IMG/VR virus record: IMGVR_UViG_2737471820_000002
DNA from: a virus
Lineage: Duplodnaviria; Heunggongvirae; Uroviricota; Caudoviricetes
Direction: 5' to 3' (one strand)
DNA length: 43,472 bases
This document shows, piece by piece, positions 1 through 33,719 of this stretch (the first letter of the stretch is position 1; each line of letters starts with the position of its first letter). The position numbers and the translations under genes were made by a program. The notes under the pieces are model-generated. The model searched no databases, was not told the origin of the DNA, and saw nothing but the letters and a program-made list of their open reading frames with translations.

Positions 1-1275
1 TTAATCACTCAACGTCTTTAATTCTTTGAGCAATTTAGCTTTATCATCATCATTTTTAATAGATGAGATAATCTTCTCAGTTAATGCTAACAATCTAACG
101 AACATTTCGTTTAGCTCTTCATCGTTAGGTGTTTCTATACCATGAAGTAAGTTATTTCTGATTCTTTTAAAATAGTTTAGTTCAAATGACTCTTCTCGCG
201 TCAGCACTCCGTCAGAAACCAATGGCTCAAATTTTGCGGTGAAGAATTTTTTGTGCTGGCGATTGTTTTGATTATGAATTAAAGAGACTGCTTTTTCTAG
301 TAAAATCCATGTTTTAACAAATGACTCAAACCCTGATACATCCTTATGTTCCCCAAGAGCACGTTTGAAATAACTTGAAAGTTTTAAATTACCTCCAACG
401 CTCTTGTATGAATCATTAATAAACATAAGAAGCAATTGATCTGTGATTGTTTCTTTTTCACTTTGATTAATTTTACGCAAATATTCAGAAAGTTCACTGA
501 CGCTTATGCTAGAATTACCCTTGAGATAATTAAATAAAATTTTAGTATCACCTAATTTAAGTTTGCTTATATAATTCTTATTTAGTGAGTTGGTTATAAA
601 ACTCGTTAACTCATATCTATTTGAAATATTATCTTTTTCTTTAGTTCTTTTTGCTATGGCTTTTTGAAGTCTTTCAAGAGCTATTTCGCCAGTAAGCACT
701 AATCCATTAATCTCATCTAGAATTGCAAGTTCCTCTTCAGATAAATCGCCTGCTAGAGGTTTGTAAACAAGGTCATGTTCGACTTCGGACCAGGCATGCA
801 TAAGAACCGATGCTACTTGAATCTCAAATAATGCACTTTCGTAACGCTTATTATTTTGGTTAGAGTTTTTCAAATTGACACGATAATGAGATGCCCAGTA
901 ACCAGAGAACCTTTTTTCAAATTTAGGTTTATAAGATGCTTCTGGAAAGTTTTTCTTTTTCCGGACATTAAATAAAAAATTAATAGTTTCATCAACTACT
1001 TCTCTATCTTTTGGAAAATATAAAGCTACTCGAACACCGGCCAGGTCGAAAATATCTTCATATATATTAGCAACATCTGCATATGCTGACTTTTCATTTC
1101 TTTGATTAAGTTTTTGTTCTAAGCGGTCTGGTCGCTTAGCTCTGAATGAAACTATGGCTTTAATCCCTCTCTTTTCCAATTCCTGCTCGAGCAAGCTTGA
1201 GCCTATTTTTGCCAACTCAGAATAGTAATCATACTGCTTGCTATATTGTTCTAAAAAATCTTTTATGACACTCAT
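1..1275 (-). CDS. RelA/SpoT-family nucleotidyltransferase fused to a C-terminal HEPN-like domain (toxSAS/CapRel-like candidate defence protein)
   Basis: N-terminal region has synthetase-type motifs (FRAKRPDRLEQKL, DIFDLAGVRVALYF, EIQVASVLMHAWSEVEHDLVYK); C-terminal region ends with RIRNNLLHG, matching the HEPN RNxxxH signature; AGGAG-type RBS about 13 nt upstream of the ATG; very AT-rich. Confidence 0.6.
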   Translation of the reverse strand: MSVIKDFLEQYSKQYDYYSELAKIGSSLLEQELEKRGIKAIVSFRAKRPDRLEQKLNQRNEKSAYADVANIYEDIFDLAGVRVALYFPKDREVVDETINFLFNVRKKKNFPEASYKPKFEKRFSGYWASHYRVNLKNSNQNNKRYESALFEIQVASVLMHAWSEVEHDLVYKPLAGDLSEEELAILDEINGLVLTGEIALERLQKAIAKRTKEKDNISNRYELTSFITNSLNKNYISKLKLGDTKILFNYLKGNSSISVSELSEYLRKINQSEKETITDQLLLMFINDSYKSVGGNLKLSSYFKRALGEHKDVSGFESFVKTWILLEKAVSLIHNQNNRQHKKFFTAKFEPLVSDGVLTREESFELNYFKRIRNNLLHGIETPNDEELNEMFVRLLALTEKIISSIKNDDDKAKLLKELKTLSD

Positions 1276-25638: not shown

Positions 25639-26691
25639 TTATTTCCCCACCAGTTCACTTACCTCTTTCACCGTCTGATTAAACCGCTCTGACTCAAGTT
25701 CAACACCTAACGCCCGACGCCCCAGCGCCATTGCCGCTTTTATTGTGGAACCGGATCCCATAAAGAAATCAGCAACCAGATCGCCTTGTCGACTACTGGC
25801 ACTGATTATTTGCCGGAGCATATCCGCGGGCTTCTCACACGGATGTTTACCCGGGTAGAACTGAACGGGTTTATGCGTCCAGACGTCGGTATAAGGCACG
25901 GAAACTGATACGGAGAAATAGCGCCGGAGAGTTTTAAACTCATCCAGCAATTCAGAATATTTGCGATTCAGTGAATCATAAGATGCCACCAGCTGGTGGT
26001 GTGGTTGTTCCAGTTGTTGTTCCTGAAATTTCTCTGCCGCTATACGGGAAAACAGTGCCTGCAACTTCCGGTAGTCAGCCTCATTCGGCAACTGCCACTG
26101 ACTGGCACCAAACCAGTGGGAAACCATATTTTTCTTACCAGTGGCTTCGGCAATCTGTTTTGCCGTTATACCCAGTTCGGCACGAGCATCCCTGAAATAC
26201 GAAATCAGCGGTGCCATTATGTGCTGTTTGAGTTGACTTTCTTTTGCCGCATAGCCGTCACTTTTGCCGCGATATGGTCCCTGGTAATGTTCAGCAAACA
26301 GAACGCGTTCTGTTGCGGGAAAATATGCGCGCAGACTTTCTTTATTACACCCGTTCCATCGTCCGGACGGCTTCGCCCAGATAATATGGTTAAGAACGTT
26401 GAAACGTTCACGCATCATGATCTCGATATCAGATGCGAGGCGATGTCCACAGAACAGGTAAAGGCTTCCGGCAGGTTTCAGCACCCGCCAGAACTGAGCC
26501 AGACAGTGGTCCAGCCACTTCAGGTAATCTTCGTCCCCTTTCCACTGATTGTCCCAACCGTTGGGTTTCACCTTGAAGTACGGCGGATCGGTAACAATCA
26601 GGTCAATGGAATCATCAGGCAGGGACTGAATAAAATGCAGGCAATCAGCGTTGATTAAATCAGCACTGTTTATTTTCACAGTATTTTTCAT
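25639..26691 (-). CDS. DNA methyltransferase (N6A/N4C class, DPPY motif)
   Basis: IVTDPPYF motif and C-terminal FFMGSGST SAM-binding motif. Confidence 0.75.
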   Translation of the reverse strand: MKNTVKINSADLINADCLHFIQSLPDDSIDLIVTDPPYFKVKPNGWDNQWKGDEDYLKWLDHCLAQFWRVLKPAGSLYLFCGHRLASDIEIMMRERFNVLNHIIWAKPSGRWNGCNKESLRAYFPATERVLFAEHYQGPYRGKSDGYAAKESQLKQHIMAPLISYFRDARAELGITAKQIAEATGKKNMVSHWFGASQWQLPNEADYRKLQALFSRIAAEKFQEQQLEQPHHQLVASYDSLNRKYSELLDEFKTLRRYFSVSVSVPYTDVWTHKPVQFYPGKHPCEKPADMLRQIISASSRQGDLVADFFMGSGSTIKAAMALGRRALGVELESERFNQTVKEVSELVGK

Positions 26692-27613: not shown

Positions 27614-28696
27614 ATGAAAAAATTAACAGTGGCAATTTCTGCTGTAGCTGCATCAGTACTGATGGCGATGTCTGCTCAGGCAGCTGAAATTTATAATAAA
27701 GACAGTAACAAGCTGGATCTGTACGGGAAAGTTAATGCTAAGCACTACTTCTCCTCTAATGATGCAGATGATGGTGATACTACTTATGCCCGTCTTGGCT
27801 TCAAAGGTGAAACCCAAATCAACGATCAACTGACTGGTTTCGGTCAGTGGGAATATGAATTCAAAGGCAACCGCGCTGAATCTCAAGGTTCCTCCAAAGA
27901 CAAAACCCGTCTTGCATTTGCAGGCCTGAAATTCGGTGACTACGGCTCAATCGATTACGGCCGTAACTACGGTGTAGCATACGACATCGGTGCGTGGACT
28001 GACGTTCTGCCAGAATTCGGTGGCGATACCTGGACCCAAACAGATGTATTCATGACTGGTCGCACCACAGGTGTTGCAACTTATCGTAACAACGACTTCT
28101 TTGGTCTGGTTGATGGCCTGAACTTTGCAGCTCAGTATCAGGGCAAAAATGACCGAAATGAAGTAACTGAAGCTAATGGCGATGGTTTCGGTTTCTCAAC
28201 TACTTATGAGTATGAAGGATTCGGCGTGGGTGCAACCTATGCTAAATCTGATCGCACTAATAATCAGGTTATCTACGGTAACAACGGTCTGAATGCTTCT
28301 GGTCAAAATGCTGAAGTATGGGCAGCTGGTCTGAAATATGATGCGAACAACATCTATCTGGCCACCACCTATTCTGAAACCCAGAACATGACTGTTTTTG
28401 GTAATAACCATATTGCCAACAAAGCACAAAACTTCGAAGCTGTTGCACAATATCAGTTCGACTTCGGCCTGCGTCCATCCGTTGCTTACCTGCACTCTAA
28501 AGGAAAAGACTTGGGTGTTTGGGGTGATCAGGACCTGGTTGAATATGTTGATGTAGGTGCAACCTATTACTTCAACAAAAATATGTCCACTTTTGTTGAC
28601 TACAAAATCAACCTGATTGATAAGAGCGATTTCACGAAAGCATCTGGCGTTGCTACCGATGATATCGTTGCTGTAGGTATGGTTTACCAGTTCTAA
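27614..28696 (+). CDS. Outer membrane porin (OmpC/NmpC/Lc family)
   Basis: Signal peptide [30 protein letters not shown]...LDLYGK start and C-terminal ...VGMVYQF beta-barrel signature; long AT-rich leader. Confidence 0.85.
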
Positions 28697-30303: not shown

Positions 30304-30758
30304 TACGCCTCCTGCTTGTCGCGGAGCAGCTGGAACTCGCAGCTCTGCGGAATAGTCAGGTGGCAGCCAATATTCATCGCCCAGGCTTCAACCTTACACA
30401 GGAAGACATACATCTCTCCGGTATCGAGATCGGAGGTATGACGTAATGACTGAATGGTGGTGATTTCACCGGTTACGACATCAACCAGTTCTTTGGTTTC
30501 ATAACCGAGATAAGTGTGTTTGAGAGCATCTTTTACCCAAGGTGGAGTGGCGAACGTTTTACCCCTGCTGATGAGGTATTCACTGATTTCGCTGTACCAC
30601 ATGTGGCTGAGTGCATTCTGGGAAAGACTGCGTCTCTCGCGCCACGGTTTAAGCACCATGCGAAAGCATTTGCCGTCCTCCAGATAAGGCTGGATCTGCT
30701 GACCGATAGCGGTGAAGTTACCACGATGCAATTTGATGCCATCTTGTAGGAGGTTCAC
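30303..30758 (-). CDS. YbcN-like (DUF1367) nin-region protein
   Basis: 151 aa starting [15 protein letters not shown]..., resembling DLP12 YbcN. Confidence 0.55.
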
Positions 30759-30947
30759 GATTCACCTCCGCAGAGGTCAAACGCTGGATGCAAAAAATCG
30801 CAGGTGCATTTCTGCATCTGTGACAGCAAAAGAGAGTTTAGATTGTATGTGCGCATAAACGTCCCCGTTTAGCGCAGAAGTCACCGATGTTGTTCAGGCT
30901 CCGGTGACATTATTATTGCTGGTTGATTATGGAAAATCAAAGGTAGA

Positions 30948-31430
30948 TTAATTTAATAATCCTTGGAGAAATCTCACGCACCACCTCAATAGTTGCGCTT
31001 GCTCTTGAGAATCAACAAAAAGATAAGCGTCTTTATTTCCGTGGAAAAGGTTATTTCTTATCCTTATAACTATCTTTAATACTGTAGACATGGTGTTTAG
31101 ATCTGTTGCTGCGTCATTTTGAAGTCCATTAACTATTCCCCGCCTATCTCTCTCTCGACCGACACAGAGGGCGTCAAGTCTTTCCTGCGCATCCCCATTC
31201 AAAATGTATCTCTGCTTAAAATCGTGAAAAAGTTCGTTGGGCACCTTTATCCCGGCGTCAAGTAACGTTCGCGCATAATTTAAACTGTCTTCCCCCTTAG
31301 CAAAGCCACCAAAAAAACTTTGCTCGACCCTAGGAAAAATCATGCAGAATTGAAGATAAACATCAATCAGTTCATCAGATGGAGGCTCCGATAAATTAAG
31401 TAACCGCTGCAGTCCTTCTGCACTTATCAT
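30948..31430 (-). CDS. HEPN-domain protein (predicted RNase toxin-like), gene 3 of the nin-region cassette
   Basis: 160 aa; C-terminal RIRNNLFHG matches the HEPN RNxxxH motif; AT-rich; start ATG overlaps the upstream small-ORF stop (ATGA). Confidence 0.55.
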
Positions 31431-31675
31431 TTTTCACCTTCCTGCTTAAGATGTCGAGGAGCGGATGCCTTGGGCAGCGCGATGCTCTGCTCGCGGTAAT
31501 GTCGTGGCCGCTCCAAAAAATAGTCCCGCAAATGCTCAGGCTGCTCACGCATCACCGCTTCGGCAATAACCGGTATATTAAGGCGCTCTTTGTAGGTAAC
31601 TCAGGAGACAGCAAGGTCAACGTTAACCTTCTCGCGCTCTTCTTGTGTTTTAGCGGCAATATTCCGCTTCGACAT
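31430..31675 (-). other. Small ORF interrupted by an in-frame TGA (24 + 56 codons), translationally coupled to the HEPN gene
   Basis: [87 protein letters not shown]; AGGAG lies upstream of the first ATG; an internal ATG at 31552 would give a 41-aa peptide. Confidence 0.3.
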
Positions 31676-31686
31676 GGCGTTACGTT

Positions 31687-32439
31687 TTACTCCTTTTTGG
31701 GTGCATACACGTTGTTTATCCGTTCAATATGAATAGTTACATCCGGGCTTTCTAAGAATAAGAAGTCAATCAAATGACCAATGAGAATGCAGGCATCATT
31801 AATAGAGGACCTTGTGACTTTAATCCCTCCATGACTGCCGTGATTCCCCAACCACTTTAACGCCATGAATGCATCTTTATTTGGTCCCAGTTTATCTGAA
31901 TAATTTGTGATTCTTTCATGCGTAGAAAGACGTATTATCTTGCCTTTAACTGTTTTCTCTCTTGGTACATCAAGACTATCAAGCATCATCTCCAGTATGG
32001 TTCTCATGGTGTTCACCGCTGAAGCTGGGTGCGAGGGGATCAGAGCTGATACTTCCGCCAAGAGATCAGCTATATCTTCAGGGCACTTTTCAGGAAACAG
32101 GAATAGAGGAAGTGGTGGATAGAAATACTTAGGACGGAAACCAGAAACATACCAACGCTCCGTCATTTCGTCATTGAAGCATTCTACAGCAACAACCTGC
32201 CCAGACAAAGCAACCTTCTCCTGGCAGGCTTGGCGGGTACAGCGCAGCACGCAACTGAATACTCCTCCCGACATTTCCTCATCAAACCATACTTCATCTC
32301 TAAACTGAGTTGTTGCGCTTGAATCAGTTTCTACAAAACTATCAGCGACAATCTCCAGTGTTTCATTCATACAGTTCGGGCAGCGCCAAGCTGGTGCGTC
32401 ATTTCGTTTAAACGTGGCATACAGTAATTTAGGATCCAT
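31687..32439 (-). CDS. Zinc-ribbon protein with C-terminal HEPN-like (possibly DUF4145-like) domain, gene 1 of the nin-region cassette
   Basis: 250 aa; N-terminal Cys cluster WRCPNC...SCVLRC...QAC; C-terminal KWLGNHGSHGG aligns with RIRNNLxHG but lacks the Arg; GGAG RBS 9 nt upstream; AT-rich. Confidence 0.45.
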   Translation of the reverse strand: MDPKLLYATFKRNDAPAWRCPNCMNETLEIVADSFVETDSSATTQFRDEVWFDEEMSGGVFSCVLRCTRQACQEKVALSGQVVAVECFNDEMTERWYVSGFRPKYFYPPLPLFLFPEKCPEDIADLLAEVSALIPSHPASAVNTMRTILEMMLDSLDVPREKTVKGKIIRLSTHERITNYSDKLGPNKDAFMALKWLGNHGSHGGIKVTRSSINDACILIGHLIDFLFLESPDVTIHIERINNVYAPKKE

Positions 32440-32727
32440 ATTTTTTTCTCCGTGCTTAACGTTTTTGGTTGCGTTAACACTCTATAGGATTTTGCAGCCT
32501 TTACTAGTTCATACCCAACCGGTCTTAGTAGGCATATTGAATTACAATCAGCTAATTAAGTTCCTCTACATCGAGGGTATAGTCGCATCAGCAACACGGA
32601 ACTCGCGCTCAAATTCTGCAAGATCCTGCTCAAGTGCAACGTAGTTTTCGCAACACAACCATGACGCCCTCAGCACTCTCTACCACATCGCAATGGCACG
32701 AATACCCACACACTCATAACGTTTCGC

Positions 32728-33021
32728 TTATACCCCTCCCCTCCCCCAAAACATCAATACCCGTTTCATCACGGCACTCTGGCGACACTCCTTGAAAATC
32801 AGGTTCGTGCTCACCTTTCCTTCCCGCTCCTCCCTGGTAGCGAACCGGTAATACACCGTTCGCCAGACCTTGCGATCAACGACCAGGATTCCTGCCCGTG
32901 CCATTTTGGCTGCTGCCTGATTGATGCTGGTTACAGTCACGCCTGTTGCCGCAGCTACATCCGGCGCGCAGAAAGTCCGGTGCGTTTTCAGGTAGTGAAG
33001 AATTGCCTCTTTGCCTGTCAT
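32728..33021 (-). CDS. ren: Ren protein
   Basis: MTGKEAILHYLKTHRTFCAPDVAAATGVTVTSINQAAAKMARAG... near-identical to lambda Ren. Confidence 0.85.
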   Translation of the reverse strand: MTGKEAILHYLKTHRTFCAPDVAAATGVTVTSINQAAAKMARAGILVVDRKVWRTVYYRFATREEREGKVSTNLIFKECRQSAVMKRVLMFWGRGGV

Positions 33022-33719
33022 ACACTGGCTCCTTTCAGTCCGAACTTAGCTTTGATTTCTGCGATCTTCGCCAGAGCCTGAGCCCGGTTAAGTGGTCTAC
33101 CGCCCATGACAGGAAGTTGTTTTACTGGTTCAGGTATCGCCTCACCACGATTAATTCGCGCGGTCATACAAGTCAGTTCATCGGCAGCCTTGCGCCGTAA
33201 TTCCGCATCAGTCAGCGCATTGGCCCGCATGTTCTGATACAGGTTGGTAACCAACCAGTAGTGCGCGTTTGATTTCCATGGATAAGACTCTGCATCCGGA
33301 TAAAGGCCACGCTTCCGGCAATACTCGTAAACCATATCAACCAGCTCGCTGGCGTTTGGCAGCCCGGCGTTAACGGATGCTTCTTCCCGGCACCAGGCGA
33401 CAAACTGCCCGGGTGATGGCAGGAATGGTCGATTCTGCCGACGGGCTACGCGCATTCCTGCGTTAACCTGTTCCATTGTGGTGATCCCGTTTTCCCGGAA
33501 AGCCAGAACCCACTGGCGGCGGATTTCGTTCAGTTCATTCTGGTCACGGTTAGCCAGGCTCGCCGGGAAAGTTGCCAGTAACTGGCTGAACACACCGTTG
33601 ATGATCTGCGCTACCTGCTGTACCTGCGGCTTTTCGTCGTACTGTTCCGGCATGTTGTTGGCGATCCGGCGCATCTGCTCACGGTCAAAGTTAACCATCT
33701 GTGCGGCGATGTTTTTCAT
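33018..33719 (-). CDS. P: Replication protein P (DnaB helicase loader)
   Basis: MKNIAAQMVNFDREQMRRIANNMPEQYDEKPQVQQVAQIING... near-identical to lambda P. Confidence 0.92.
   Translation of the reverse strand: MKNIAAQMVNFDREQMRRIANNMPEQYDEKPQVQQVAQIINGVFSQLLATFPASLANRDQNELNEIRRQWVLAFRENGITTMEQVNAGMRVARRQNRPFLPSPGQFVAWCREEASVNAGLPNASELVDMVYEYCRKRGLYPDAESYPWKSNAHYWLVTNLYQNMRANALTDAELRRKAADELTCMTARINRGEAIPEPVKQLPVMGGRPLNRAQALAKIAEIKAKFGLKGASV

Follow-up and report, generated by a model that had tools for sequence, protein, structure and literature searches.

What is encoded by a short reading frame that is interrupted by a TGA codon and ends in an ATGA overlap with a defense-like gene? Such a frame lies on the minus strand of the window analyzed here (the complete stretch of 43,472 nt from a virus record of IMG/VR), between the genes for a 250-aa and a 160-aa protein. 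The original prediction, made from the nucleotide sequence, offered three readings of it: a nonsense-disrupted relic, a recoded or readthrough small protein, and a peptide that acts on the downstream gene as an antitoxin or regulator. The analysis presented below leads us to conclude that the frame is very probably a dead prophage gene of the DNA polymerase III theta family (HolE/P1 Hot), inactivated by one G-to-T change that converted the GGA codon of Gly25 to TGA.

The interrupted frame and its prophage setting

The host element is a lambdoid prophage that is integrated at tRNA-Thr(CGT), with a proA-like gene adjoining. The gene order around the frame is O, P, ren, the 250-aa DUF4145 gene, the theta frame, the 160-aa gene, ninB, ninE, ybcO, rusA, and Q. 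The coordinates of the relevant features (Table 1) bear out the prediction of a frame that opens 11 nt beyond the TAA of the 250-aa gene (31689-31687) and runs for 24 codons up to the in-frame TGA. Following this TGA, the same frame contains 57 sense codons, one more than the 56 originally counted, and then ends with a second TGA (31429-31427). The AGGAG upstream of the start is present as predicted, but its distance of 14 nt from the ATG is longer than typical. Normal termination from the original start would yield only the 24-codon fragment. Two internal starts are available in the frame after the TGA, namely, the ATG at 31552, from which 41 aa would be translated as originally stated, and a GTG at 31555 (42 aa). 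The GC content of the segment is 51.4%, compared with 43.6% for the 250-aa gene and 40.8% for the 160-aa gene, in agreement with the earlier observation that it exceeds that of both flanking genes.

Table 1. Features of the theta locus (window coordinates)
Feature	Position	Strand	Basis or remark
Broken theta frame	31427..31675	-	82 codon positions, nonsense codon at position 25
N-terminal fragment, 24 codons (MSKRNIAAKTQEEREKVNVDLAVS)	31604..31675	-	from ATG 31675-31673
In-frame TGA in the Gly25 codon	31601..31603	-	homolog alignment
ATGA overlap of theta stop and 160-aa gene start (ATG 31430-31428)	31427..31430	-	sequence
Shine-Dalgarno-like AGGAAGGTG of the 160-aa gene	31435..31443	-	4 nt before ATG, within theta 3' end
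AGGAG before theta start	31690..31694	-	sequence; 14-nt spacer, touching 250-aa gene stop
160-aa gene, intact, all-helical, motif R-x-R-N-N-L-F-H-G-x-K	30948..31430	-	family alignment, AF2
250-aa DUF4145 gene, low-GC accessory	31687..32439	-	PF13643, E=7.9e-12

A 93-aa ORF on the plus strand (31451-31732) is explained as a shadow frame by the strong theta homology on the minus strand. In a scan of positions 30700-33100 for promoters and terminators, the counts were not above those in shuffled sequences; a promoter-like site at 31457-31429 is no evidence of function.

Several accessory genes were identified elsewhere in the prophage. At its far end (positions 1-1275, minus strand), a 424-aa ORF contains a RelA/SpoT nucleotidyltransferase domain (PF04607, E=1e-13) and could be a toxSAS/CapRel-like defense gene. 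Just past Q, on the opposite strand, lies a porin gene (27614-28696, plus strand; Porin_1, E=3.6e-152), and near it, an N6/N4 DNA methylase gene (25639-26691, minus strand); both are prophage morons that are annotated also in IAI1 and D9. The 250-aa DUF4145 protein contains a Cys-rich segment at its N-terminus (CxxC ... CxxxxC).

Identity of the interrupted gene

When the TGA is read as Gly, the frame matches the Pfam family PF06440 with a score of 100.8 bits (cut-off 34.6; E=3.5e-29), over positions 2-68 of the 70 positions of the profile. A match over the whole theta domain places the frame far beyond chance. The two halves on either side of the TGA also match theta separately, the 24-codon fragment at profile positions 1-24 and the remainder at positions 26-82. 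Among proteins with solved structures, the best match is Hot of phage P1 (1se7; E=3.7e-31), and E. coli theta is detected as well (E=2.1e-18); both alignments run without gaps straight through the TGA. The score for NF008207, the NCBIfam model of the chromosomal theta subfamily, is 95 bits, just under the cut-off of 97, which is consistent with a phage-type paralog.

Thus, the relic that was among the original suggestions is indeed there, as a theta homolog located in the nin region rather than as a canonical lambda nin gene.

The stop codon and other lesions

The TGA falls on a glycine, Gly25, that is invariant among the aligned homologs (119 of 119). In five intact loci, this glycine is encoded by GGA or GGC, so that a single G-to-T transversion explains the TGA. 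The broken theta further contains four residues that are absent from all 119 homologs (A23V, L57P, D72A, and Y75H); accordingly, the conserved core, which consists of Gly25, an aliphatic residue at position 57, Asp72, and Tyr75, is not retained. The same TGA is present in all examined allele classes of complete genomes (100%, 99.4%, and 98.1%), and nine IMG/VR copies have it along with other non-synonymous changes (K4Q, R31H, and A72T). The class represented by SCU-484 carries an extra 1-bp deletion that wrecks the C-terminal part of the frame and abolishes the ATGA stop, and this additional frameshift is found in about 18 complete genomes. The TGA at codon 25, together with the 1-bp deletion in one lineage, indicates that the sequence is a pseudogene derived from the theta family and not a working member. 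It is already known as such and flagged in public annotation: in IAI1, D9, and 14EC001, RefSeq (PGAP) labels the locus 'DNA polymerase III subunit theta; internal stop', and for SCU-484, the label reads 'frameshifted; internal stop'.

A second theta wreck, independent of the TGA allele, precedes the same 160-aa gene in OkiPb01694/A35 and three IMG/VR loci. In this allele, the start is lost, a stop occurs near codon 11, and there is an internal deletion.

Among 5.8 billion (5.8e9) clustered proteins, no intact allele with more than 82% identity was found. An 83-aa database 'protein' (P0001) that matches at 99% was rejected as an intact allele, being a gene call under genetic code 4 in which both TGAs are read as Trp, on short metagenome contigs of at most 949 nt. 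This entry is a pseudogene, masked by the code-4 artefact.

Distribution and selection

A megablast search over complete E. coli genomes (5426) detected the segment in 55 genomes, in 52 of these at full length. The TGA allele occupies at least two integration sites, as judged from D9 (beside ybhC), 14EC001 (at thrW), and this window. Being found in about 52 of 5426 genomes and at more than one site, the allele is not an accident of one strain but has persisted and spread. The comparison of homologous loci envisaged in the original prediction therefore gave a divided answer: these loci contain an 82-aa ORF that is not interrupted and has Gly in place of the TGA, but the TGA itself is not strain-specific. 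The TGA aside, most copies retain an open frame that extends to the ancestral ATGA.

Compared with the Enterobacter copy (L009), pS is 0.80 and pN is 0.095. These values imply purifying selection during most of the history of the gene and, hence, a comparatively recent nonsense mutation. Within E. coli, there are 3 synonymous substitutions, 3 non-synonymous substitutions, and 1 indel relative to SCU-484, and 0 synonymous and 2 non-synonymous substitutions relative to D9, too few for dN/dS to demonstrate relaxed selection statistically.

Readthrough and recoding

Low-level UGA readthrough occurs in E. coli. With near-cognate Trp inserted at a leaky TGA, a small, tolerated dose of a full-length Hot-like protein would be made, and the allele would be kept for this low dosage. 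Such a scenario would fit the wide spread of the allele and a downstream frame that is mostly open up to the ancestral ATGA. We nevertheless consider it very unlikely, given that the codon affected is that of an invariant glycine, that L57P and the other residues unseen among the homologs have accumulated, that the additional frameshift disrupts the frame in the SCU-484 class, and that no diverged homolog has a stop at this codon. Neither is there a stimulatory RNA structure past the stop. Folding of the 96 nt that surround and follow the TGA gave a minimum free energy of -21.3, no better than for shuffled sequences (mean -21.06; z=-0.07), and a search of Rfam in E-value mode with positions 30800-32800 returned no family match, just two chance eukaryotic hits.

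The same results weigh against selenocysteine insertion or another form of programmed recoding at the UGA, for which the sole support is the in-frame TGA within an otherwise open, conserved frame. The folded segment contains no SECIS-like hairpin; the homologs have Gly at this position, never Cys or Sec; and theta is a small structural subunit with no known redox chemistry. Programmed recoding was rejected because the stop is not conserved in diverged homologs, no structured element lies 3' of it, and no Rfam family is matched, and we assign this explanation a negligible probability. The suggestion of a recoded or readthrough small protein, in either form, is thus not supported by the alignments, the folding analysis, and the frameshifted lineage.

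Ancestral arrangement and probable loss of coupling

Intact 82-aa theta genes occupy the same slot before ninB in HK639 and many E. coli prophages. In prophages of Enterobacter cloacae, Salmonella, and Klebsiella aerogenes, an intact theta gene is followed by an ortholog of the 160-aa gene (74-80% identity), and the two are connected by an identical GGTGAAAAATGATAAGTGCAGAAG ATGA junction; the loci that combine intact theta, the 160-aa ortholog, and the ATGA overlap are L009/L010, L014, and L017/L018. The occurrence of the same junction in prophages of other genera indicates that the ATGA overlap is real and ancestral.

A dead theta gene would have arisen at this locus as follows. The ancestral state was an 82-aa theta gene that led into the 160-aa gene via the 4-nt ATGA overlap. 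The G-to-T change at the GGA codon of Gly25 would have produced the TGA and inactivated theta, after which the broken gene has drifted: it has gained unique substitutions at conserved positions, one E. coli lineage carries a frameshift as well, and another has an independent, decayed allele. Ribosomes that initiate at 31675 are expected to stop after 24 codons, so that no theta-like protein would be made. With termination about 170 nt ahead of the start of the 160-aa gene, coupling is presumably lost: the overlap on which the predicted coupling was based is genuine, but here the link is probably severed by the upstream stop. The 160-aa gene would then be translated independently, from its own Shine-Dalgarno sequence, AGGAAGGTG. 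The broken theta may survive because its 3' end holds this ribosome-binding site and because there is no selection for its removal.

The sequence AGGAAGGTG is kept also in a prophage of Enterobacter quasiroggenkampii (L016), where it is intergenic because theta stops early (17 nt / 8 codons). The theta of this locus (2760-2984) differs at many otherwise conserved positions, with KVNVDL changed to QVSVDL, REQPEHL to REHPEHI, and HYRE to HNRE. Shortened and changed at conserved positions ahead of a 160-aa ortholog, it looks like a gene drifting towards loss.

Theta as a flank for cassette exchange

In BLAST comparisons, homology to the modules of theta and the 160-aa gene in other genera begins at 31665, just within theta, and excludes the DUF4145 gene. 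In HK639, L007, and L011, which lack the 160-aa gene, homology covers approximately theta codons 4-56 and resumes right past the stop of the 160-aa gene. For the OkiPb01694 allele, the junction maps to 31495. These breakpoints show that the conserved part of theta, its 5' two-thirds, serves as a homology flank at a point of mosaic cassette exchange between ren and ninB.

The DUF4145 gene was found ahead of theta in this prophage lineage only. In A35 and OkiPb01694 (L004/L005, 1147-2780), a phosphoribosyltransferase-like gene and a NADAR 'anti-phage' gene form a pair in the slot between ren and theta. With differing accessory cassettes across E. coli prophages, this slot looks like a defense-gene hotspot. 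In the Enterobacter cloacae prophage, the gene next after the 160-aa ortholog (L009, 5120-7021; L010, 2045-3946) encodes a 633-aa protein with a NACHT domain and is defense-like.

The 160-aa neighbor and its relationship with theta

The 160-aa protein has no match in Pfam, NCBIfam, or PADLOC. An exhaustive search identified 68 distant relatives, and the alignment of these sequences reveals the invariant residues E36, R74, R123, R125, N127, H130, and K133. The invariant RxRNNLFHGxK motif of the family includes R-x4-H, and weak matches to PF18735 (HEPN_RiboL-PSP; E=1e-4) were obtained for two of 60 distant relatives. With 60 distant relatives as input, AF2 confidently predicted an all-helical fold of nine helices (pLDDT 95.6); with 9 close sequences, the pLDDT was 43. 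Foldseek comparison of the confident model with PDB and BFVD yielded nothing at E<=0.001, and a profile search against PDB sequences gave no match. The protein is HEPN-like by its motif and may be a member of an undescribed HEPN-like family. No family library supported the HEPN label that it originally received, and its HEPN membership is putative.

The motif region of the 160-aa protein is also matched by two giant proteins, in 18 separate stretches of P0138 (1805 aa) and 4 of P0157 (1730 aa), which suggests repeated copies of the helical motif. In three IMG/VR loci of the E. coli type (L031, L032, and L035; around 2498-2980), the 160-aa gene is split into two ORF segments, so this neighbor is also decaying in some prophage lineages.

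Among the IMG/VR loci of the 160-aa family (L025-L081), a theta sequence adjoins the family gene in 28 of 57, and most of these theta sequences are broken or fragmentary. The lesions are independent and include stops (L042, L073, L077, and L079), frameshifts (L039 and L058), and a deletion (L068); in L072, the family gene lies between a theta fragment on its upstream side and a full theta on its downstream side. For the 80 best-scoring loci, out of more than 448 theta-like stretches in IMG/VR, 78 theta genes are intact and a single locus has a member of the 160-aa family downstream, a comparison with the 28 of 57 that is biased because the best-scoring theta copies are the intact ones. The association of the family with broken theta is, accordingly, a lead and not a finding. 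An obligate partnership was rejected, as many relatives of the 160-aa protein occur without theta, and 79 of the 80 theta loci are without the family. We consider it unlikely that the family has a functional or mechanistic link to phage theta, whether as an antagonist, as a replacement, or as a cassette that preferentially recombines into theta. Alternatively, theta may simply be a convenient conserved flank in decaying prophages.

The frequent proximity of the family to theta sequences would also fit the proposal that the locus yields a small peptide, either the 24-aa N-terminal fragment or the 41/42-aa product of an internal start, which would regulate the downstream HEPN-like protein or serve as its antitoxin. 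The proposal further accommodates the internal ATG and GTG and the end of the frame in the ATGA overlap. However, the 41-aa frame is shifted in its C-terminal half in the SCU-484 lineage and mostly deleted in the OkiPb01694 lineage, and an identical 160-aa protein (WP_000622059.1) is intact in both. Whereas a type II toxin-antitoxin system would be expected to have an intact partner wherever the toxin is intact, the 160-aa gene is intact beside three broken states of theta. Besides, the internal start lacks a convincing Shine-Dalgarno sequence; 29 of the 57 IMG/VR loci of relatives have no theta nearby, and the same holds for L020 and L022; and the proposal presumes toxicity of the 160-aa protein, which is itself only putative. 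A role of either peptide as antitoxin or regulator is, therefore, most improbable, and the prediction of a 41-aa regulator is not sustained by the lineages in which its frame is disrupted next to an intact 160-aa gene.

Implications and comparison with known theta proteins

As a dead theta gene, the locus is of little importance in itself: it is a recognizable pseudogene that standard annotation (PGAP) flags. Its value is that of a worked negative example, in which a TGA and an ATGA beside a defense-like gene mimic recoding or a toxin-antitoxin pair, and intact homologs resolve the TGA as a Gly-to-stop change. It also illustrates that lysogens can do without the Hot-like phage theta genes of the lambdoid nin region, which repeatedly decay, and that accessory and defense cassettes, such as DUF4145, the PRTase-like and NADAR genes, and the 160-aa family, are swapped at a mosaic exchange point marked by the conserved part of theta.

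Among the known theta proteins, P1 Hot (1se7, 2ido) is a phage-borne theta homolog whose residues 4-80 align with residues 4-80 of the broken theta. It differs in being intact, with 83 aa and a Gly where the broken theta has the TGA, and in its location on the plasmid prophage P1, as opposed to the nin region of a lambdoid prophage. According to the summary in PMC7556043 of work by Chikova & Schaaper (2005 and 2007), Hot substitutes for E. coli theta and is expressed both in lysogeny and during lytic growth. HolE, the theta subunit of the E. coli Pol III core (1du2, 2ae9, and 2axd), shares the PF06440 domain and aligns over residues 4-69, but is chromosomal, intact, and 76 aa long. The theta genes of lambdoid phages and prophages (HK639 gp60, P0003 of Enterobacter cloacae, and P0013/P0082 of E. 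coli) show 77-82% protein identity and occupy the same slot between the replication/ren genes and ninB; these are uninterrupted ORFs of 80-82 aa, in contrast to the broken copy with its nonsense codon and unique substitutions. The RefSeq pseudogene ECIAI1_RS23355 of E. coli IAI1 and the corresponding pseudogenes of other strains are the identical feature, without any difference.
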